Shown: positions 36,867 through 49,215 of the stretch, one piece after another
Numbering within the stretch: the first letter of the stretch is position 1
Layout: the number at the start of each line of letters is the position of its first letter
Assembly: GCA_023515725.1 (NCBI GenBank)
Contig: JALDTO010000266.1
Location: 568,708-632,707, forward strand
Direction: 5' to 3'
Origin: Amoeboaphelidium protococcarum X5
Taxonomy: Eukaryota; Fungi; Aphelidiomycota
Length of the DNA: 64,000 nucleotides
Program-made: the position numbers and the translations under genes
The notes under the pieces: generated by a model
Told to the model about the DNA's origin: nothing
What the model saw: only the letters and a program-made list of their open reading frames with translations
The model's database searches: none

Positions 36867-37826
36867 TCAGAGGGCAACGCGCTTAATTTGAATTGATTAT
36901 GCCAGTCTTTCTTCAAAGTTTCGGCTTTTACAGATTGCAATGACTCCGTTAATAATGACAAAGGATCCCGTGATTTATAGCGTTCTAATCTGTACGCCTT
37001 TTGGGAGAACAAAAGTCTTGACTGTTCGTAAAATGTTATCATAGACAGTGGGCGATTAAGCCGATTAAACCTTACCCGCAGATAGCAATGTCTAAAAGTG
37101 ACCATAGTATGATACTGATGGATTGAGGAGTTTCAAAGTGGACAGGTTGTGTGGCACATGACTGATGTATCCAGCAATAACACCTGCGCAGATACTACCA
37201 GCAAAACTATTGATCGTTTCAGCTTGATCTGATTTCGAGAGTTTCATTTACATCGCGTTCAATGGCCCGGTTAATGTCAATAGATGAGAGGATGAAGTCA
37301 TGACATCACTAGCCTGATTCAATCCGATAGCAAAAATTACCTCCCTTATGGATCTAGGTACAAAGCCACGAGTCGCTCTTTTCAGCAGGTGTTCCTTGTT
37401 CATATGACCAGCATTGAACGCTTCCAGCAACGAACTCAGCGGAGTCATTGTGAGGCCTGGGATAATGGCTGCAGTTGTTTCAATAAGTTTCTGTTGCCAT
37501 GGATTGACGATGGTGCCATTCTAGTATAGCGTTGCTTTTTATCTCTCAACATATACTCGCATACTCTTTATGCCATTAATATACAGAATACGCGTCGGCA
37601 GCTGATAGTGCATGTTAGGAAAGTATCTTATTTTGGCTGGAGGTGTTGACAACGACGAGATTACAGAAGTTGATTAAGTCATAAGCTTAGTGAGCCGCTG
37701 GTTGAGCAGCGAGTTCATGCCACTGCGATAGAATGCATCAATAGACGCGCCAATTGTGGTTGAAAACACAGGTATTGATGCAGTAGCAGATGTAGACGGT
37801 GTTTACTTTGCAGCAAGGGATGACAT
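36867..37826 (-). CDS. Divergent mitochondrial-carrier (SLC25)-like membrane protein, 319 aa
   Basis: Open frame ATG 37826 to TGA 36867; carrier-like segments IIPGLTMTPLSSLLE, RGFVPRSIREVIF, AGSICAGVIAGYISHVPHNLSTLK, KGVQIRTL; canonical PxD/ExxK/R motifs degenerate. Confidence 0.6.
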
Positions 37827-38190
37827 TGAGACTAGTAAAATGTAAAATCGATTATCAATTTTCAAGAGAAAGTTTTTGATAAGAAAGGAAATGAATAAAA
37901 ACCAATTGTTTTGACTTTAAATCATGTCTATTTTAAGCCCATGTATCAGCTAGATCATTGCCGGTAATGCTCAATCAGACTTGTTTGATCCAGGTGAGGG
38001 GAATTGACCATCGGCTTCGTCGATCAACGCGTTCGGGAAAAGTCAGACTTGTGCCGTCCATCGTCATTGAAAAATTATCTCTTCTTTTTTATTTTATTGC
38101 ACCGCTATCTACTTATTCAATCTTTTATTATCGTATTTATAAAGACTACACTATTAAAAGGGCTAACCAGCTGTTGTTATCATCATCAAG

Positions 38191-38538
38191 ATGTCTAAAA
38201 TGATATTTAATCGTGTGTTTGGCTGGCTTGCTAACGAGTTTATCACGAAGCGATTGGCGAATAGTGAGACCTTCTAGAGTGCTGCACATAAACTGCATCA
38301 CAATGTATCTAGCAATCCTCTGTTTAAATAACTGGCTGAAAGCTAGAAGCCTAAATATACTCGCCCCATCGATCCATATAGAATTAGCTCGTATCACTAA
38401 CCAAAGCCTCAATCACATGCTTCGTAATCTGCATTTGCCTCACTCAATCTCAGGAAGGCGTAAAAGTTTGCTTCTGAATTCCAGTCTGCTCTATCCTCAG
38501 AATTATCTAAAATGAACGCCAAGTCTGCAAAGAAATGA
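38191..38538 (+). CDS. Small probable mitochondrial protein, Mrx7/NCBP2-AS2-like (115 aa)
   Basis: MSKMIFNRVFGWLANEFITKRLANSETF[Q]SAAHKLH...KFASEFQSALSSEL; resemblance by eye. Confidence 0.55.
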
Positions 38539-38712
38539 TTAATATTATTTACATTCTAATTGGCTTTATTTTTTTCATCCTTAGTGCTGGGTTTGATGTA
38601 CTCTTTTAGGGATCATATCTTCTTTTTATTTTTCGTTGAGAGTTTGATCAGTTGATTTCCGTTCATACATAGACGTTTACACTTTTCAGCAGTAAAAGTA
38701 GTATTGTTTAAA

Positions 38713-39972
38713 ATGCTTGCATCATAACACTACAAAAGCGCCTCTTAGGATAGACCATCAGCGACGTACAATCCTTATATAAGTCTTGTGAATGGCCTGT
38801 AAACTATTCAAGTACCGCATTTCGTGTTGGAAGATGGGAGACAATTTTCTAATGTTCCCGTTGGGTATAAAACTTGGGGCACCTTCAACGGGCAGAACTT
38901 GATCGTAGTTTGTCATGCAATATCTGGCTCACCTGATGTGGAAAGCTGGTGGAGCGATTAGATTGGAAGTGGGAAAACGTTCGATCCTGACAGAGATTTT
39001 ATAGTATGTCTCAATGCGGCCGGTTCTCCGTATGGCTCTTTTTCTCCTCTGACTGCTGATCCCAAGTCTGATGGCAAGCGATATGGCGCATCGTTTCCCA
39101 CCATATCTATTCGTGATTCTGTTCGCTTGCACAAGATTGCGTTGGATATATTTCTTGGGTCTAATACTTTCAATATCTCTGCAGTTGTTGGTGCCTCGCT
39201 GGGCGGTATGTATGCTCTAGAATGGGCGGCCTCATATCCAGCCGTTGTACAGAAGGTGATTTCTATAGCTTGTGGCCTCCGATAGTCAGCGTGGGGAATC
39301 GCGTTATGCGAGTGCCAGCGATTGTGTATTTAAAGTGACCAAGCCTATGCACAGGGTGATTATTACTATAATATTAAGCGCTAAATAGATGGCGGAGGTA
39401 ATGATGGGTAGTAAAAGTCAATAGTTCGTTGGAATCAGCCGGTTAGAGGTCTGGCTAATGCTCGCATGTAAGGCATGATCAGCTACAAATCTCCTGCGAC
39501 TTTTAATGTAAAATTCGGTCGTTCCGTTTATCAGTGTGATCAGATGGAGTAGCACCGATATCGTATTGAGAGTTGCGTGTTTTCAGAAACTGATTGCTCA
39601 TTTTCGGAAAGTAAAGACTCAAAGTTCAACATGCAGACTTATTTGCGGTATTAGGGATCAAAGTTTGTGGAGAGATTTGATGCGAATTGTTATATCGCAT
39701 TGACCAAGTAGCTTGATACTCATGACATACTGAGGAATCGTGACATTAACGCCGTATTTAATTCAGATCTCCGCATGCTTATAATTGGCGTGGACTCTGA
39801 CATTTTGTATCCCGTCTCTGATTAAGAAGAGATTGTGCAGCTGGCGTCAAGCAATGGCTGCAATGCCTAATTGATTGTGATCAATAGCTCTGAGGGACAC
39901 GACGGATTTCTAACTGAGCACTTGTAAGTCTCTCAGTATATGTAATAATTTTTGAATTCTCCCGAATAATGA
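38713..39972 (+). CDS. MET2: Homoserine O-acetyltransferase
   Basis: YKTWG, VCHAISG.PDV.SWW, CLNAAGSPYGS, FP.ISIRDSV, nucleophile GASLGG, FDANCY, EGHDGFL. Confidence 0.93.
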
Positions 39973-40271
39973 AAATTTATTCTAAAGATATGTTCTATTG
40001 GCACTTTCTAACTTGAATAATCGGCATTCGGTCAATCGACATGGTTCAAGCGACCAAACTCGGCAATTGACAGAGCTCCGATAAGTCGCGATTATAACTT
40101 TTCTTATTGCGATTTGGGCGTAAATTGAACGTAGATGACTTGATAGTTTTTGCGATCTATTGTAATTGAATTTAATTGATCAAGCTGAGAGATATTTCTT
40201 GTTCTTTTGACAAGATTTTCGCTTTGTTTCAACCTTTAAAGTCTGTTACAACTTTCACTTTTATTCTCTGT

Positions 40272-40277
40272 TCCGAC
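40272..40277. repeat. Left target-site duplication TCCGAC
   Basis: Identical to 44764-44769, directly abutting the left TIR. Confidence 0.92.
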
Positions 40278-40318
40278 TACGGAGTTCGAGAAACGCAAAA
40301 CCGCCTCGCAGTTTAAAA
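40278..40318 (+). repeat. Left terminal inverted repeat (41 bp)
   Basis: TACGGAGTTCGAGAAACGCAAAACCGCCTCGCAGTTTAAAA. Confidence 0.9.
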
Positions 40319-40492
40319 TTACTAAACATAGAAAGTAAAATGAAAGTTCCCATTAATATTTTAAATGATTTTTAATTTTTATTTTGTTTTGTAATTTTAA
40401 AAATAAATTCATTGCTATTTTGTTTCTTATCATGCACTATATCCGCCTTATAATAGGGGACATCTTAACTCGAATTCATTTTTTGCAGCAAA

Positions 40493-41872
40493 ATGTCTTA
40501 AGAAATCGACTTGGAACAGGTACGGCAGTTAGTAAATTAAGGTTTGAAGCGCAAGGAAATTTTAGATACTCTAAATTCTAGTGGAACAATCTGCTCCAAG
40601 TCCAAATTGGACCGGTTTATGACTGAACATGGATTGAGTACTGCTTTAAATAGAGCCACATTTGCGGATTAAAGTGAACATTGGATTGAAGAAGCTCGCC
40701 ATCTAATTAATGGCGGGTCCACTTAACAATAATTATTGGATTGGCTGAAATAGAAGCATAATATTTAAATGTCCTTAAGGACTTTGCAATCGATTTTGTC
40801 GCAGCATTAAATTGGAACGAGACATTGTGCGCTATCTCCTGTCGAAGTTTTGGATTTAGTGCATGTTGTAAATCAGGATGAAGGTGAAAGATTGGGAATT
40901 AGATCAACTACATAAGTCCTTCGTGAACTATCAGGCCAATAAGTATCTCGAGACATGGTTATGGTTTGCTAAAGATTCGACAATCCAGAGGCTGTGTAAA
41001 TGCGTAAAAGGCGCAAGTTGAAACGCCGTGAATATTAAAATGATGGTCCTAATTAAGTGTGGCATATAGATGGCTTCGATAAGCTGTCGTAGTTTGGCTT
41101 TGGAATAAGTGCGTGTGTAGATGGTTTTAGTAGGTATGTTGTGTTTAGTATGGTCGCAGATACGAATAGGCCCGCGCGTTACATACTGGAATATTTTCTG
41201 GATGCGGCTGACAAATGCAATGTTATGCCTGGAAAAGTTCGTGTTGATGGCGGAACTGAGAACAATTACATCAAGTAATTGCAAGAAATATTGGTAGGTG
41301 AGAACTCTTATATTGTGGGTTCATCCAATTTCAATACGCGTATAGAAAGTTACTGGGGCAGATAGAATCATTATGGGCTTGAATATTGGATAGGAACGCT
41401 GAACAATCTTCACTTTGCAGGTTATTTTAATACCACGCTTTATTCTCATAAGACAATTTCTCAGTATTGTTTTGGACATTATATCGCTGAGTGTTTAGAT
41501 AAAATTACCACCTTGTGGAATTACCATAAGATTCGAAATCAAGGACAGCCCATCATGCGTTATCAAGTTCCCGAGATGTTTGATGGAGTAGAATGTGGTT
41601 TGGAGCCTCCTCAAGACATGCGTGATATGGCTATTCAATTGTTTGGACCAAGTACTATAGATATGAATGATAGGTTTAGAATTAATTACGCTAGGCATCT
41701 TATTGATGAAGTTGTTATAGAGAAAGGTTTTGATCAACTTACCTTTGACAATTGTCAAGATGTGTTCAAGGCTTTAGTGTCCGATGGCGATCTCGTAAGC
41801 GCGCTGGATGCATTTAGAGATTAATTGTTGATAGCAGAATAGTAAGTGAGAGGGTAGGAAATTGCTTAGTGA
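40493..41872 (+). CDS. IS3/integrase-like DDE transposase (IS3EU), 459 aa
   Basis: N-terminal HTH-like repeats (LLDWLK[Q]KHNI[Q]MSLRTL); RRKLKRREY..DGPN[Q]VWHIDGFDKL..FGF...CVDGFSR; VRVDGGTEN; SSNFNTRIESYW; WNYHKIR; D, D and E all present; TGA 41870-41872. Confidence 0.93.
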
Positions 41873-41957
41873 AGAATGGTCTGAATAATTAAAAATTTCT
41901 TATTGCTATTACTATCTTTACGTACTCATTGTTAACTCCACCAGAGCTACTAAATAC

Positions 41958-43973
41958 TCAATCCTCAGTCAAAGTTGGCAATTTCTTCTACGCAGCATTT
42001 TTAGCACGCGTATTAGGTCTTCTGCTAGACGGACGTATGTTTTTAACAATAGGATCCACCAACTTAATCTTAGATTTCTCCTTTACTATCTGCAAATCCT
42101 GAGTGGCTTGATTATTAACTTCTACCTGTTTAGACACAGAAGTTATGGAGACATCCGACTTCAATGATGTCTTCTACTATCCAAGAGGATTAGGAGCGGC
42201 CTATGCTGGAGATCCAAACACAGTGGACTCGAATTTATCCATTAAGAGAGAATCTTCCATAATCTTCTCCATTACTAAAGACGGAATGGTCGCGACATCT
42301 AAATGCAAAGCCTTGCAAATCTAATTGCACTAGTGCATAACGAAGAACTTCACAATTGCTGGTAAACCCATATTGCCAATACTGCAATCGGTGCCATTGA
42401 CAGTGCACACCTAAAGATCTGTAAAGTGACACTTAGAGCCTTGAATATCAACTATCATTTACTCGTAGTTCTCCTTCTCAAACCAATAATAGGAGTAATG
42501 GGCAAAAGCCCAGGCCACTTCTTCACGAAAGTTCTCCTCATAAGTCTGATCATCATCACAAATTTGCATAAAATGCTCGTTGTCGATATACTTCACAAAT
42601 TGGCCATCTACGAAGGGTTCAACTGTCCATATCTTTGCTAGATCCACCATATCACCAAATTCCTCATTTTATTTGTCTCTAATCTCCAGCATCACGCCAG
42701 CACAAACTCCACGCTACTCACCAGCAACCTATAGATATTCTTAACCCAGCAGCGTCTTAATCAATTCCGCGTCAAAATCTAGGAAGCACCTTTGAGCGCA
42801 AACAGAGTTTAATATTTCCCTAGCATGTAATCCATAATCATCGTCATCCTTATCAATTGCGCACTTAAAGACTACTGGCAGATCTGGAAAAAACTTGACC
42901 AGAGATCCATTATAGTAGCATCTTTTTATATTCCCTTTGTTAGTCTTTCCTGCCAGATCTGGCATTCCAACTACTCCTGGATCCTCAGTGAACCAGGAGC
43001 CTGTTTCATAGTCGTAGACATGCACAACCACACTGCCTTACAAGGAGCGCGTATTTTTTATTACACGCTGAGGGGACACCTTGGAAATGTTTTCAAACTA
43101 GCAAAACTTATTCTTATGTTCAATCTAACTATTTCTCGCAACATTTGAACTGACAGGTATGATCGTAGACTCCTGCGCAGATTTGATCTTTTTGACAGGC
43201 TTGACAGGTTGAATAATAGGCTCATCTAAAGTACGCGTCGGTTCAACAATTTCAAAATCATCCTTATCCTGCATCTTCTCATCTGGCAAACCATACTAGT
43301 AATCAAAGTCCTCGACATTCAAAAAATTCAGCTACTGTAGAGACTCATAGTTTCTCTTTAAACTAGGATGCAATTACACGCGATTGCTTTCAACCAACGG
43401 AATCAAATATAGCACCTTATCCTTATTAGAGGTATACTTACATCCTGCCAATTGAATATTCTGGGTCCATTATATTACGTCAAAATCAACTCCAAATTAG
43501 GGGATTTGGTGGATTTGACTTTGTCCAATTGACGATTGCTCAACTTGATAGTGAAACAATGCACAAGCTTATGCTAAGACAGATTGATAATTGTCATTAT
43601 ACTTGTCAATCTAAATCATCTATGGGCCAACATTTTCCAGACGCTTAAATTATCCAACCTTTGATCCTGAAATACAAGGGACAATGCTAATTTGCACCAG
43701 CGCGTTTTTACGCGTCAAACCTCTATTTCCACTACCAGGACCGTTTCTATGAACAGGGGGCGGCGGCTTAGTCTGGTATCCACTGTGCAATCTATTTACC
43801 ATTGACTCGGTTCTTGTCTGCACCGCAAGCTTTTTCTTTTACTCAAATTGCATTTGTGAATGCATCAACTAGGCTTGCGCCTATTGCCAAGATTTACATC
43901 CAGCACAATGACAGTCCTCCCTTTTGAGTCCGGACGAATTGGGACATAACACATCTTACAACGGATTAAACAT
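41958..43973 (-). CDS. Transposon-borne alpha-kinase (eEF2K/MHCK family) protein, 671 aa
   Basis: KGNIKRCY, VVFK, EPFVDGQFVKYIDN, AFAHYSY, MIVDIQG, FTDL[TAG=Q]V, GNMG..AIVKFF.MH[Q]CN[Q]ICKAL; single frame ATG 43973 to TGA 41958. Confidence 0.9.
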
Positions 43974-44722
43974 GCTTGATACTGATTCTATTCAAAAGAC
44001 ACTAGGATATAGATATCAACTAAAGAGATTGCGTATATTTGTCGCGTTTTAGTTATCTGAACTATGAGAGCTGTTATTAATAATATGATTGCGTAAGATC
44101 TTAGAGTGGCGTAAGGGGGGTGGCGCAGCAAGTAATGACAACACTACGGCGTCCCAATGCTGCATTGCTTATACCTGTATGCTTATCTCGCAAATAAGAT
44201 TGTACGTTGTTAAAAAGTAGTTTAGTGAATAGTGTGTAAGAGATAATAAAGTATCATTCAGTATCAAAACAATTTATCACAAATAATCGCTTACTTACTG
44301 TTAAATTGCAAGCGCAAGTTTCGAGATTAACGCATCAAGCAATCAGTTGTGACAAAGATCGAGCAACCACTACTCACAAACAGTTTGCAAATTTTTGCTT
44401 GAGGTTTGGTGCATATATTTCTTTACTAGAGAAGCGGAGCAAATACTGCTATATTAAAAATCTTGAGATATTTACACCAATACTGCTGCAGTTGCGCAAG
44501 TTGCACATTAAAGTAAAGCAACACACACACGGTGCATGACTAATACATTTGATTTTGCAGCATGATATAAATAAGAAAGTAATCACAAAAATTAATCAAT
44601 TTGTTAAGTCGCATTCGCGTATTACAAGTGCAAAAACGTTATGTATTAATGTGAGGCACTGATTGCGGCTCTCGAACATTAAAAACAAAAACAGTTGTAA
44701 GAAACAAATATTCGTTTCTGCT

Positions 44723-44763
44723 TTTTAAATAGCGACGCGCTTTTGCGGCTCTCGGATTCCGTA
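44723..44763 (-). repeat. Right terminal inverted repeat (41 bp)
   Basis: Reverse complement TACGGAATCCGAGAGCCGCAAAAGCGCGTCGCTATTTAAAA; its internal 12-mer TTGCGGCTCTCG recurs at 44663-44674. Confidence 0.9.
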
Positions 44764-44769
44764 TCCGAC
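44764..44769. repeat. Right target-site duplication TCCGAC
   Basis: Identical to 40272-40277, directly abutting the right TIR. Confidence 0.92.
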
Positions 44770-44819
44770 TTTGTTTCATGAGAAGTAATCAATTACGATA
44801 ATTGCATACAGTAGATAAT

Positions 44820-45921
44820 ATGGCCAAAAGAAATTAAAATGTGGATGTTCTAGCCAGAGCCCTGGTAGGAGAAAGAGAAAGTTATCAGGGCGCAGTCAGT
44901 AAGTGTATGTCTATCATACTGTCTATACATAGTTTGTAATGAGTTATTGTAGGATCCGATTTCTAACTTCACATGTCCTCAGTCAATGATCCCAGCTTTA
45001 AAAAGCTATAAAGAGTAAGCTTCATTAGAATTATGACGATAATATTAACATTTAATGTAGATGCTGACAATGTGGGTGAACAATACAACCAAAGGTGGAT
45101 CGACGAGCGTAATTGATCTTGTTTCAGATCTGGCGGATGGTTAGATTTTGGCCAACTTTCTATCTTTACTCACTGGAAAGCCACTAGAACTTCCACCTGC
45201 CATTAGTGATCGTGCCAGGCGATAGAATTTTCAGCTCATAATCAGCTTCATCTAAAGGGAGCTTAGTCTCTCGGAGAATGATCAGTGGTCTTTGCAAGGT
45301 CTCTTTGAACGTGATATCTCCTCAACTTACTGCCTGTTGGTAGATCTCGCTCATGCTCTTCAGTGTCCATATCAATTGCCATCTAATGTATCTATAGCGA
45401 TTGTTCATACAGAGTCGGTAAATGGTATTAAAACTAACAAGACTCGTAAGGTTCAATTGACTAAAGATGAGAAACTATTCTACCGTCCAGATATGATTGG
45501 ATCTAATCAGAATTTGAAAGGTTCTGTACTATCTCTCACAGAAGACCCATTTGACGCGTTATTCGACTCTAATCATGAAAGGGAACTGGAACAAGTTAAG
45601 CATTTGGTTACTGAATTTCTGAAGACCCACCTGGCCAAAGTTGATCGATAAATTACAGACTTGGCTCAGGACATGCACGATGGAACGAATTTTGTACTCC
45701 TGATAGCTGTGCTGAGTAACTTTTTTGTGCCTCTTAACAAATTCTCAATCAATCCACAGACTAATGAAGACAAGCTGAAAAATGTTCTATTTCTGTTGAA
45801 AATGCTGGAGCGTCTAGGAATTCCTGGCTCAAAATGGAACGCAGCTGATGTGGTCCGCAAAGATTTGAAGATGATCCTTAGATTGAGTTTTGATATTTTC
45901 AAATCATTCAACGCCAATTGA
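44820..45921 (+). CDS. Parvin (tandem calponin-homology protein of the ILK-PINCH-parvin complex)
   Basis: SVNDPSFKKL..MLTMWVN, DLVSDLADG[Q]IL, DPFDALFD, ITDLAQDMHDG..FVLLIAVLSNFFVPL, DVVRKDLKMILRL; two introns ending TGTAG (44952, 45060). Confidence 0.88.
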
Positions 45922-46002
45922 ATATTATGAAGATATCAAACTATAAAAGCGTTTAATGCATGTTGAAAAATAGTAGTCGAAATATATGAATATTATTTGA
46001 AA

Positions 46003-47448
46003 TCAAACTTAATTCAAAGCTGATTATGTTGAACTCTACCACTCCTCGGTGTACATTATTCGTCGTGCAGAGTTGAACCAAGGTCCATTCTTCATCCGTA
46101 ACTCTTATTCCGCGTTTAATTCCCCCACCATGAGCATACAACACAGCATACACGGGAATATACAACAGCTACAGCACAGAACTATTCCGAATAGAACAAA
46201 CACCGGAATCATGATAGTACCCACTGCATATTAGAAACCAGGACCGGTTGATAGGAGATTATTTAATCGCTAAATCAACATACCAATGACAGCCAAAGCA
46301 AATATACAACCAATCGCTACAATGATTGTGATAAAAGTCACAAATCTCTTTATGGAAATCCGTTCCCTCTATGGCAAATGTCCAGCACGTAATCGATACT
46401 GGATCCAAGGTGAAAGTAACGCTATAGCACACATCAGATATAGAGGAATAAAGACAACTGCCCAATTAGTGAATTACTAATCTGCTTGTCTAACAATCAA
46501 TATCGCCAATACTATTCTCAGTACCTAGTACTTGAATGTATTTATAACGCGTAAACTGGCGGTAATGAACTTCTCTCTCATTGAATTAAGATGACCAAAT
46601 TCCAGTGATTGCCATAAAGTCAACAAAGACTCTACAAAGTGTATTCCCTCCAGTACGAACCAAGGCACAAACACAACAGCCCAAGACATTGCTCCACTAT
46701 TCTCCAATTTAATCACAATCAAAATTTAAAATACACAGAACAACACGTACTAAATTAATCTTTTCCACGCAAGTATACTCTCCAATACCTTCTTACTGGA
46801 GAGTCTATTGAATAAAAAAGACTCCTATTACTAATGTTGGGGTTACGCGTTATCACTATCAAAATCCAAACAATCTTAATCCACCCCATTATACGTATTT
46901 TACTGCTGCATATTTACAACTTCACTATCCTCATAATCAGTTTAAAGACTTTCATCCTGATCTTGAGATCCAAAATAACGCGCAAATACAAATATACCGC
47001 CAACCACGTCCAAAATCCAAATTGGAATAAACACCACGGCCCAATTCCATTAAACATGACCATCAGCTTTCAGGACTACAAATATCGGGAAGAGAAGTAA
47101 TATAAGAAGCAGTACGGAGACTACACATAGGAGAGTCAGCAATAATCCCTACGATTCAGGATCTAAGAGAAACGAGGCAGACTCTCCCATCTGATTATAC
47201 ATATCCACACCAAATTAGCCATGCTGATCATAAATCCTCCTCAACTTTTCATTTCCCAATACATCCCAAGCAGCATTAATTTTCTGAAATTAGGCACCAG
47301 CCTCAGCAGATTAATTCTTATCAGGATGGTACTACAACGCAAGTCTGCGATACTACCGCTTTAATTCGTCAGCTGATGCATCACACTCACACTATAATAT
47401 TTCATACAGCTCCAAATTGTTGCCTTCTGATTACAACGGGAAATCCAT
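46003..47448 (-). CDS. J-domain protein fused to a TMEM185/Fam11-like polytopic domain with a C-terminal Cys string
   Basis: J domain LYEIL..YRRLAL[Q]YHPDKN..F.KIN.AWDVL..RRIYD; repeated L+.DG...W.W.VVF.P.W motifs; VLCCSCCIFPCMLCC. Confidence 0.82.
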
Positions 47449-47683
47449 AATTTTTTTTGTTAATTTAAATAATCTCTCGACGCAGGATAATATATCGCCG
47501 TATAAGATTCAGGCTGATTGAAATTGAAGCTGAGAGAGAGAGAGACTTTAACGCGTTTGTTCTCTTTCCAATCAGCAAAAGGGAAAAAGCTCTCCTGCTA
47601 TCTAAAGGCGTTTCGTCACAAAGAGGGCGCCCGATCACTGAAGGGAATTGTCATTAGACTCTATAGGTTGATCCAAGCTCAGT

Positions 47684-49215
47684 ATGACAACTATTGAATC
47701 GATTAAACAAGATTTAAAATCTTACATTCAACAGTTACTATTACCTGCAGAGAGTAACCATTTATTCGTTGTTTGTTCTCTAGAATTTATTGCGGTACTT
47801 TGTTGTAGTACATCATGGAGGTTGGTAATTAAGTTATTGCAGCAGATTGATGGTTCGTCTGGACACTTTGATTGATCAACTTGTAAATAAGTTCTAAGAG
47901 GCATCAGTAGACTAGATGTAAATTGACGCTTAAGATTATAATGATATTTCTATGATTGATCAACTAAAGGTATTCCATCTATACACTGTAGTTTGCATAA
48001 AATGCTCATTTGTTAAAAAGAAATGACATTATTGTGTAGAGTGACGCGTTGATTCTCATTAGAAAGGCACTGCAGCAGCAGGTGATGGAATATTTAACAT
48101 TCCAATCTTGTGTTGATAATTATGCTTAGCAGGAACCCGTTCAGATTACACCTCAGATGCTTCAATAGATTGCCACTGATCTCGGTATTGAGTGCTTTAT
48201 TGATCAAGATTCAGTGCCTGGTGGTTAGATGGTCACTCTTGCAGGATCTACTCTGGTTGTGGACGTGACATCAACTGGCGATTAGTAGTCGTTCTCTGTC
48301 GATTTAATATTTCCCACAGACACTTTTAAAGATGAAGATGGCTACGTTGCTGATACTTTTAAATCTAATCTCGAAAATGGATAAAGATCAATGCTGATGC
48401 TGAATCTACAAATATTCTTTGAATGGGATAAGATTTATTCGGAATGCAATATGTTTGATCATTTGAAGTCGATTCTCACTCAATTCAAGTAATTGACTCC
48501 CTCTGAGGATGTGAAATTGGTGAATGGTTTTATGGTACCTGTACTTGAAATCTAAACAGGTTCTGAAGGTAATTACTTGATTGCGTATACTGACAGTCTT
48601 TTGGAACGTGATATTTCTCTAAACAGTTTGTGTAGAAATATACCTTAGAATGTAATTGATTCGATCGGGTCAGAAAGTTGATTCATGTTTGGTGTTATCC
48701 CAACCAACAGTGTTTTGTTAAGCAGCCTATAGTTAGTTATGCTAATTTGTCAATTTGGAAGAATAACAGTTATCGGGGATGTCTTACACTGAGAGATTAA
48801 ATGTAGGCTTTCCTTTATGATTCTCAGTGTAATTATTACGCGTGTGTAGCTTCATAATATTAATACTTGTCTCTCCGCACAACTTATGACACCCTGTGCT
48901 GTGGTTCATAATATTCTTCTGAACGATCGCTCCGTACTGTTTGAAGTTTTAAAGATTGTCAAGGCTTAGGTCTCTCTTAATCGCTTGTTGGAGGAATGCA
49001 CTGAATTTGGTGACGCGATTGCATAAATGTCACTTGATGAGAATCTCTTATTGAAATTGTAATTGGCATCCGATTCCATAAAACTGTCCGTAGACTTGTA
49101 ATCTATGCAAGTATATGTGAATGGTGCACCGATTGAAGACGTCGTTCCATAATCACTCTCTTTAAAAGACGCGATTGCAATTGTGAAACAGAAAGTCTAA
49201 TAATCGTCTTGTTGA
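47684..49215 (+). CDS. Probable Mediator subunit Med1
   Basis: Four GT..TGTAG introns give a continuous frame; L[Q][Q]IATDLGIECFID..VTLAGSTLVVDV, NL.IFFEWDK..NMFDHLKSI and VLKIVKA[Q]VSLNRLLEEC resemble the Med1 core; exon boundaries inferred. Confidence 0.62.

Follow-up and report, generated by a model that had tools for sequence, protein, structure and literature searches.

Amoeboaphelidium protococcarum X5 belongs to the aphelids, fungal relatives that parasitize algae, and its genome contains a transposon in which an integrase-like transposase and a complete alpha-kinase face each other. We favor the interpretation, with a probability of about 0.5, that this is a recently burst two-gene IS3EU element, and that its kinase is a resident helper that phosphorylates the transposase or host nuclear proteins.

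Element structure and genetic code

The element measures 4.5 kb and was annotated in a window (the whole stretch of DNA that was analyzed) of 64,000 nucleotides, in which its features are as follows, with TSD denoting target-site duplication and TIR terminal inverted repeat:

40272..40277, + strand: left TSD, TCCGAC, an exact repeat of 44764..44769
40278..40318, + strand: left TIR, starting TACGGAG (inverted-repeat scan and contig starts)
40493-41872, + strand: DDE transposase, 459 aa, rva_4 (PF24764); uninterrupted table 6 ORF ending in TGA
41873..41957, no strand: inter-stop gap of 85 bp, separating the transposase and kinase stops
43973-41958, - strand: alpha-kinase gene, 671 aa, intronless as read; uninterrupted table 6 ORF ending in TGA
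42264..43046, - strand: alpha-kinase domain, residues 310-570 (Pfam, motifs, and predicted structure)
43974..44722, - strand: non-coding right arm, likely the promoter and 5' UTR of the kinase
44723..44763, - strand: right TIR, TACGGAA read inward from outside (inverted-repeat scan and contig ends)
44764..44769, + strand: right TSD, TCCGAC, an exact repeat of 40272..40277

The TCCGAC duplication and the 41-bp TIRs described in an earlier note on this DNA were both reproduced. The 6-bp TSD is established at this one site, where both sides are readable; the termini are TACGG..CCGTA, and the arms pair at 33/41 positions, the longest among 198 inverted pairs at 39500-45500. The two ORFs are separated at their TGA stops by the 85-bp gap, which leaves no space for a TET/JBP gene between them, and there is no third among the ORFs listed inside the element. 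The right arm is spliced over in a public gene model (n = 1).

Both ORFs are readable solely with TAA and TAG as Gln (table 6): the standard code leaves longest stop-free stretches of 152 and 98 aa, and the kinase gene meets a stop at codon 6. TAR codons account for 50/95 Gln codons in the element and 376/732 in the host (p = 0.83), and the element genes thus use the reassigned stop codons of their host at the host rate. The expectation that standard-code gene calling would miss both ORFs held in that they are broken without table 6, but not for public databases, since both proteins are already predicted in NCBI/nr, where near-identical copies from A. protococcarum are labelled 'hypothetical'.

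Copies, empty site, and mobility

Identical copies of the kinase occur on 11 contigs and of the transposase on 12, although more than one assembly may be represented among them. Contigs start at 40278 in four sequencing runs (X2, X5, X8, and X9) and stop at 44763 in runs X2 and X5. In X2, contigs with these boundaries have a depth of 1382-1454, vs. 62-80 among the flank contigs listed; the depth ratio of the element is about 20 in X2 and about 1-2 in X5 and X8, and the samples seem to carry different numbers of copies. The empty-site check proposed earlier returned flanks joined without the element in contigs from two of four runs (X2 and X5), the X5 contig having 278 letters vs. 283 predicted; this empty site, recognized by its joined flanks, is a homeologous, diverged allele (~92%). 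A second insertion is evident in gene model P0006, where an eIF4E gene is interrupted at GAVFSR and runs on through the right TIR, in translated form, into an identical kinase; the eIF4E alleles P0004, P0005, and P0007 are uninterrupted. Mobility of the element is therefore well supported, and it is present at several genomic sites, likely after a recent burst, in keeping with the earlier description of an intact, autonomous-looking, recent insertion.

The identity of the TIRs, at just 80%, might suggest that the TIR/TSD structure arose by chance or through assembly around a resident host kinase gene. However, among the 427 TAY..RTA pairs of the 64-kb window that are flanked by an exact 6-bp repeat, the runner-up pairs at only 20/41, contig ends and the depth step coincide with the TIRs, and there is both an empty site and the eIF4E insertion. 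Given the chance check, the depth step, and the identical copies on many contigs, we regard this explanation as refuted.

Transposase

The 459-aa ORF stands as an uninterrupted DDE transposase under table 6, with a Pfam match to rva_4 (PF24764; E 1e-27) and one to rve (E 9e-4) that falls under the cut-off for that family. The predicted DDE triad is D193, D252, and E285, as placed by the conserved WHID, RxD, and RIE motifs. The N-terminus has a weak helix-turn-helix (HTH), residues 171-179 form a basic cluster (RKRRKLKRR), and Pfam gave no match to an integrase zinc-binding (HHCC) domain; a relative with a solved structure was not found. An alternative in-frame ATG upstream (40340) would yield a 510-aa protein, a form absent from the protein collection.

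Alpha-kinase

All alpha-kinase motifs previously listed for the convergent 671-aa ORF were located, and the profile search bore out the assignment (PF02816, E 9.5e-24, residues 348-553; 84.9 bits vs. a cut-off of 21.3). The protein consists of a ~310-aa N-terminus, the kinase domain, and a low-complexity tail that ends mildly basic. Its domain includes K350 in the P-loop, E452, N465, and Q511; the catalytic residues K370, K461, D509, and D519 and the G533-N-M-G536 loop are kept, as are putative Zn ligands H492/H547/C549/C553, with N-lobe equivalences and Zn-ligand roles assigned by motif. Judged from these residues, the kinase appears catalytically complete, as had been proposed. In a 127-sequence alignment, it keeps 15 of 17 near-invariant columns, deviating by H467 for G and L520 for P. 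By motif alignment, Lys350 occupies the P-loop position of Arg592 in MHCK-A (numbering from the accessible text of PMC4876393), where that source describes a basic residue that is important yet dispensable; P0016, P0044, and P0166 also have Lys there.

The AlphaFold model of the kinase (pLDDT 89.6) matches eEF2K (E 5e-13) and MHCK-A (E 2e-12) in Foldseek, with 44 matches at E<=0.001 that are alpha-kinases throughout among those listed, and no viral alpha-kinase fold at that threshold. The protein is predicted to be an active Ser/Thr kinase. A full-length single-sequence model (pLDDT 33) was uninformative. Residues 1-309 have zero Pfam matches, including to any chromatin-reader domain. A beta-grasp-like N-terminal domain common to P0016, P0044, P0166, and animal-type kinases was considered and rejected (HHalign probability 0.2%; 41/300 shuffles score equally high). 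The basic cluster of the kinase is weak (5/12 residues), making a nuclear location a guess.

Origin of the kinase

The kinase seems to belong to the element as a second, resident gene rather than to be a captured passenger, because no host parent gene was found: an intact host paralogue is missing from the matches of the protein searches, and the sole close relatives, P0013, P0014, and P0165, are broken fragments found in A. protococcarum itself. The earlier term 'cargo' is accordingly doubtful. Outside these fragments, the closest full-domain relatives have 32-35% identity. Of the full-length relatives with a name, the nearest comes from Podochytrium: P0016, annotated as a hypothetical protein and located on a 4220-bp contig (27% over 375 aa). 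The kinase tree, from a quick search with long branches and 107 of 148 domains kept, leaves the aphelid protein in an open group. Against the older copy P0013, the kinase core is identical at 52/54 positions and the tail at 76/105 (p = 2e-4), which points to selection acting on the kinase.

Related loci were searched in other DNA. No alpha-kinase was found in the DNA covered around the metagenome transposases (0/35 loci), although the profile used recovers the kinase of the window at E 6e-39; this result is weak because none of the loci had two convincing ends. Neither did Pfam detect an alpha-kinase among 73 ORFs of longer related loci (70 from a list of 129 ORFs, and three others). At one locus (L013), a related transposase is preceded by a TET-like gene and by a Clr5 domain. 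The 22 viral-contig candidates included no transposase relatives. A degenerate TIR pattern had no matches in metagenome contigs and six in viral contigs; because tblastn matched neither protein to any of the six, we ascribe them to chance.

Proposed role and alternatives

Integrase-like DDE enzymes of this family bind TIRs and insert with a 6-bp stagger, and staggered insertion by the element's transposase would give rise to its TSD. Transposase and kinase would each be transcribed inward from their own element end, and the targets of a helper kinase would serve excision, integration, or gap repair. The benefit to the element would be conveyed by a transposition-linked substrate, which is the weakest step of the model. 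The H467 and L520 deviations, the P-loop Lys, and the weak basic cluster speak against a helper, as do the 0/35 metagenome loci and the silence on a kinase in the accessible descriptions of Styx and GingerRoot. A published paper on IS3EU kinase function was not found in the literature, and the structure and function of IS3EU elements are mostly unexplored territory (PMC11934779).

A kinase that instead counters silencing, by phosphorylating histones or silencing proteins and with no part in the transposition reaction, is somewhat unlikely but deserves consideration. Alpha-kinase fragments of TRPM6/7 phosphorylate histones, and locus L013 combines a TET-like gene and Clr5 with a related transposase. 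The TET/JBP genes present in related IS3EU families are proposed to act against silencing (PMC12730594, section 4.2, in its accessible text). The same text has TET swapped among many superfamilies but mentions the kinase for IS3EU only, a distribution that suits a transposase-specific role, and the N-terminal region offers no chromatin reader. A poison kinase gene, acting alone or paired with an antidote (addiction or drive), is improbable, as is an effector aimed at the algal host: an intact enzyme is borne by a selfish element whose copy number seemingly varies by sample, but the ORFs listed include none for an antidote and element-free alleles exist at the same site. An effector is disfavored by the lack of a hydrophobic, signal-like N-terminus (maximum 11-residue hydropathy 0.48), and a cell using the standard code would end translation of its gene at codon 6. 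Passive capture of a host gene whose decay is still to come is quite improbable. Young copies would be intact regardless of function, and Selaginella GingerRoot/IS3EU elements often bear host gene fragments (PMC6839031, accessible text); yet no parent gene is apparent beyond broken same-species pieces, the core is more conserved than the tail, and a transposase and alpha-kinase pairing recurs in distant fungi according to the accessible part of PMC12730594.

A broader extension of the helper reading, less likely than not, holds that the alpha-kinase is an ancestral, required transposition component of a large IS3EU branch, co-inherited since before the split of aphelids and Dikarya. If so, this would be a cut-and-paste transposon that activates its own transposition through phosphorylation, the stripped-down, intronless, recently bursting aphelid copy would represent a minimal working unit, and TAR=Gln coding would restrict it to hosts sharing that code. 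Being small, with two intronless ORFs, no other gene, and apparently recent movement, the element would be a practical substrate for transposition assays after recoding of TAA/TAG.

Comparison with known systems

The IS3EU assignment of the earlier note is upheld by the termini, 6-bp TSD, TIR length, rva_4 transposase without HHCC, and interspersed copies. IS3EU is defined by TA..TA termini and usually a 6-bp TSD (PMC10045372, accessible text), whereas IS481EU (TNT..AYA ends, TSDs of 4/15/25 bp, single ORF) is excluded by the TAC ends, 6-bp TSD, and two ORFs. The element shares TA..TA ends, a 6-bp TSD, and an integrase-like DDE transposase without HHCC with IS3EU/GingerRoot, for which the accessible descriptions (PMC10045372, PMC6839031) leave a kinase unmentioned and give GingerRoot TIRs of 100-150 bp, compared with 41 bp here; no aphelid member of this group was found in the literature. 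Styx of Zymoseptoria is likewise IS3EU-related and recently reactivated, and is said to descend from a two-protein ancestor, but has four coding sequences and, in the accessible text, no mention of an element kinase (PMC10853768). The kinase has the predicted fold and the catalytic residues of eEF2K, MHCK-A, TRPM7, and ALPK1, at about 15-22% structural identity; it lacks the CaM, WD40, vWA, or channel partner domains of known alpha-kinases, and has a P-loop Lys and TDLQ where these have Arg and TDPQ.

The closest counterparts are the TET-bearing IS3EU families of rusts (Pucciniales) and Tuber indicum (such as IS3EU-7_PSt and IS3EU-2_PGr), in which the transposase and an alpha-kinase are oppositely oriented (Kojima 2025; PMC12730594). 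The pairing, which the earlier note did not know to be characterized, is thus already in print and is not novel, and the element represents a known kind of system. The accessible text of that paper ascribes the pair to every TET+ IS3EU family, describes TET genes as moving from one superfamily to another, and gives the families TAYGG..CCRTA ends, 6-bp TSDs, and TIRs over 30 bp, a length that the aphelid TIRs also exceed. 'Opposite' may there mean convergent or divergent, while the aphelid genes are convergent. The listed consensuses start TACGGAAG or TATGGAG, vs. TACGGAG/TACGGAA in the aphelid element; rust families place a TET/JBP gene between transposase and kinase, whereas the aphelid element has none and neither ORF has a Pfam TET domain; and the families compared are 8-13 kb, vs. 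4.5 kb. Kinase-only IS3EU families may already be listed in Repbase or the supplement of PMC12730594. The pairing, so far known from one discussion paragraph in the accessible part of that paper, now extends beyond Dikarya, from rusts and Tuber to an aphelid with TAR=Gln. What is new here, as set apart by these descriptions, is an aphelid IS3EU member that is compact, TET-free, and written in TAR=Gln at the host rate.

Structure and coding of the element

An intact IS3EU-type DNA transposon, 4486 bp between its target-site duplications (TSDs), lies at 40272-44769, TSDs included, and comprises the following features:

40272-40277: left copy of the TSD, TCCGAC (seen in sequence)
40278-40318: left terminal inverted repeat (TIR), beginning TACGGAG (arm comparison)
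40493-41872, + strand: transposase ORF, 459 aa (table 6; rva_4 match, E 1e-27)
43973-41958, - strand: alpha-kinase ORF, 671 aa (table 6; Alpha_kinase match, E 9.5e-24)
44723-44763: right TIR, ending TTCCGTA (arm comparison)
44764-44769: right copy of the TSD, TCCGAC (seen in sequence)

An earlier note had proposed this intact structure, its IS3EU type (TACGG ends, 6-bp TSD, and transposase) and the completeness of the kinase ORF, all of which hold: the 41-bp TIR arms agree at 33/41 positions, and the runner-up among the 427 TAY..RTA pairs of the window that have an identical hexamer on either side scores 20/41. No further TIR-like copies were found in the window. The two ORFs are convergent, and the insertion point is a spacer between a calponin-homology gene and an alpha/beta-hydrolase gene, the latter presumably homoserine acetyltransferase-like. 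TAA and TAG (TAR) encode Gln in the window, where ATG-started ORFs of at least 200 aa number 2 under table 1 vs. 50 under table 6; the two element ORFs escape standard-code gene calling, as the note had stated. TAR codons account for matching shares of Gln codons in the element genes (50/95) and in 18 host ORFs (376/732; p=0.83); thus, we infer that the element has long been resident under this code. Public copies of both proteins, each with 2 residues different, are listed as hypothetical proteins of A. protococcarum, and their locus tags are neighbors.

The kinase domain (residues 310-570) has a predicted fold with a pLDDT of 89.6 (127-sequence alignment), with structural matches to eEF2K (E 5e-13), MHCK-A, TRPM7, and ALPK1. 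The hallmark residues are kept, including D509 (of DIQG), D519 (at the same ten-residue spacing as Asp756 and Asp766 of MHCK-A; PMC4876393), K461, K370, the GN loop, and H492/H547/C549/C553, and 15 of 17 near-invariant alignment columns are conserved, the departures being Gly to H467 and Pro to L520. The P-loop Arg position is occupied by Lys350, as it is by Lys in the nearest relatives. The kinase is predicted to be catalytically active.

Mobility and insertion sites

The element is intact and recently mobile; the recent insertion claimed for it is borne out by exact-copy contigs, element-free joins, and an insertion into an eIF4E gene. The exact kinase and transposase sequences are recorded on 11 and 12 contigs, respectively, not necessarily all from one assembly. 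In sequencing run X2, possibly the run from which the window derives, two contigs cover the element (40278-42983 and 42957-44763; depth 1382 and 1454; 0 and 1 differences), the flank contigs listed have depths of 62-80, and the depth step coincides exactly with the TIRs, contig depth not being equal to copy number. The high element/flank ratio in X2, vs. ~2 in run X5 (another study) and ~1 in X8, suggests a burst in one lineage.

In both X2 and X5, the two flanks are also found joined on contigs that lack the element. Between 40036 and 44812, the X5 contig comprises 278 letters, the expectation for an empty site with one hexamer being 283, and a 5-letter deletion at 44807 is present in X8 and X9 alleles. 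Because this element-free X5 allele is only ~92% identical to the window, it is a homeologous empty site. Different right-hand flanks meet the element at 44763-44764 in X2 and X5. Within one run, a second allele of the flanks (37000-40200 and 44800-48000) is about 8-10% diverged, as expected for a hybrid or duplicated genome.

The gene model of public protein P0006 represents a second, independent insertion: an eIF4E gene is interrupted after GAVFSR, followed by LRNPRAAKA, which is the right TIR translated reading inward, and then by a kinase identical to that of the window, whereas P0004, P0005, and P0007 run on unbroken as GAVFSRRSKG. P0006, which lies outside the window, is annotated as a 1075-aa eIF4E-alpha-kinase 'fusion', most likely a gene-prediction product of the element inserted in an eIF4E exon. 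The readable target hexamers, TCCGAC (window), CGCGCG (X5), and TGCGGA (X2; weak two-contig consensus), all contain CG in a genome of ~40% GC, hinting, from three sites only, at a preference for CG-containing hexamers.

Relatives of the kinase and transposase

The kinase matched 890 proteins at E<=0.001. Among the 150 listed, the only close relatives are one 99% fragment and the broken same-species pieces P0013 and P0014; a separate search gave another such piece, P0165. P0014 and P0165 have in common an N-terminal piece of Myb-like appearance without a Pfam match. Older broken copies of the kinase (~86% identical) occur in the same species at the equivalents of 42078-42598 (X2 record 2; X5 record 12); they lack 1 letter at 42563 and are bordered left and right by foreign DNA. 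Outside the species, the best full-domain relatives among the matches listed (32-35% identical) are the unnamed P0015 and Podochytrium P0016 (KAJ3060443.1); the 4220-bp contig of the latter is near the element's size and may therefore be a chytrid IS3EU. P0016, P0044, and P0166 resemble the element kinase in N-lobe signature and overall layout. In a tree of 107 kinase domains, the query joins P0016, P0015, and others in an open group (SH-aLRT 87, long branches); no domain in this tree is identifiable as a fungal IS3EU kinase, and co-descent is not readable from it.

Searching metagenomes with the transposase yielded 35 loci. A kinase profile made without the window's kinase, which it nevertheless recovers at E 6e-39, found a kinase beside the transposase relative in 0/35, most loci being short, and two convincing element ends were found in none of the 35; five loci of one ~10-kb repeat have the right end TATGG alone within the sequence covered. 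These loci thus establish neither that transposase relatives always carry the kinase nor that they lack it. Locus L013 (5208-8585) has a TET-like oxygenase ORF and a Clr5-domain ORF upstream of the transposase relative, with no kinase in 8 kb upstream, and probably represents a fungal TET+ IS3EU. Loci L016-L020 form a young repeat (94-99% identical) at least 10 kb long, which has a TATGGGGCGCC end and a transposase relative; its divergent upstream ORF (L017:5704-6318, - strand) has no Pfam match.

Role of the kinase and comparison with published families

From family knowledge, the DDE transposase would act by cut-and-paste with a 6-bp stagger; two promoters would face inward, and the kinase would be active and maintained by selection for the element's benefit. 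We favor a role as transposition helper (probability about 0.5) because, in the published set, the kinase stays with IS3EU while TET genes switch superfamilies. A counter-silencing factor is a possible but doubtful alternative, and a poison or effector is unlikely; the literature search found no study on the role of the IS3EU kinase. That the kinase is a passively captured gene is very unlikely. No intact host parent was found among proteins of 157-1175 aa, and in comparison with P0013, an older copy whose tail includes part of a retrotransposon RT, the core is better conserved (52/54 identical) than the tail (76/105; p=2e-4), which, in this one comparison, hints that the kinase is under selection.

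The pairing of IS3EU with an alpha-kinase, which the earlier note had thought possibly new, is already catalogued in PMC12730594 (Kojima 2025). According to that paper, Pucciniales TET+ IS3EU families have 6-bp TSDs, TIRs over 30 bp, and TAYGG..CCRTA ends; all TET+ families carry the TET gene between oppositely oriented transposase and alpha-kinase genes; and in the supplement rows compared, consensus lengths are 8-13 kb and most consensus sequences start with TACGGAAG or TATGGAG. In the sections covered of PMC10045372, IS3EU elements are described as having TA..TA termini and 6-bp TSDs, with no mention of a kinase, nor is an element kinase mentioned in those of PMC6839031, PMC10853768, and PMC11934779; no title retrieved concerned aphelid IS3EU. 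The value of the element is as a compact aphelid example of IS3EU with a kinase and as a substrate for testing what that kinase does.
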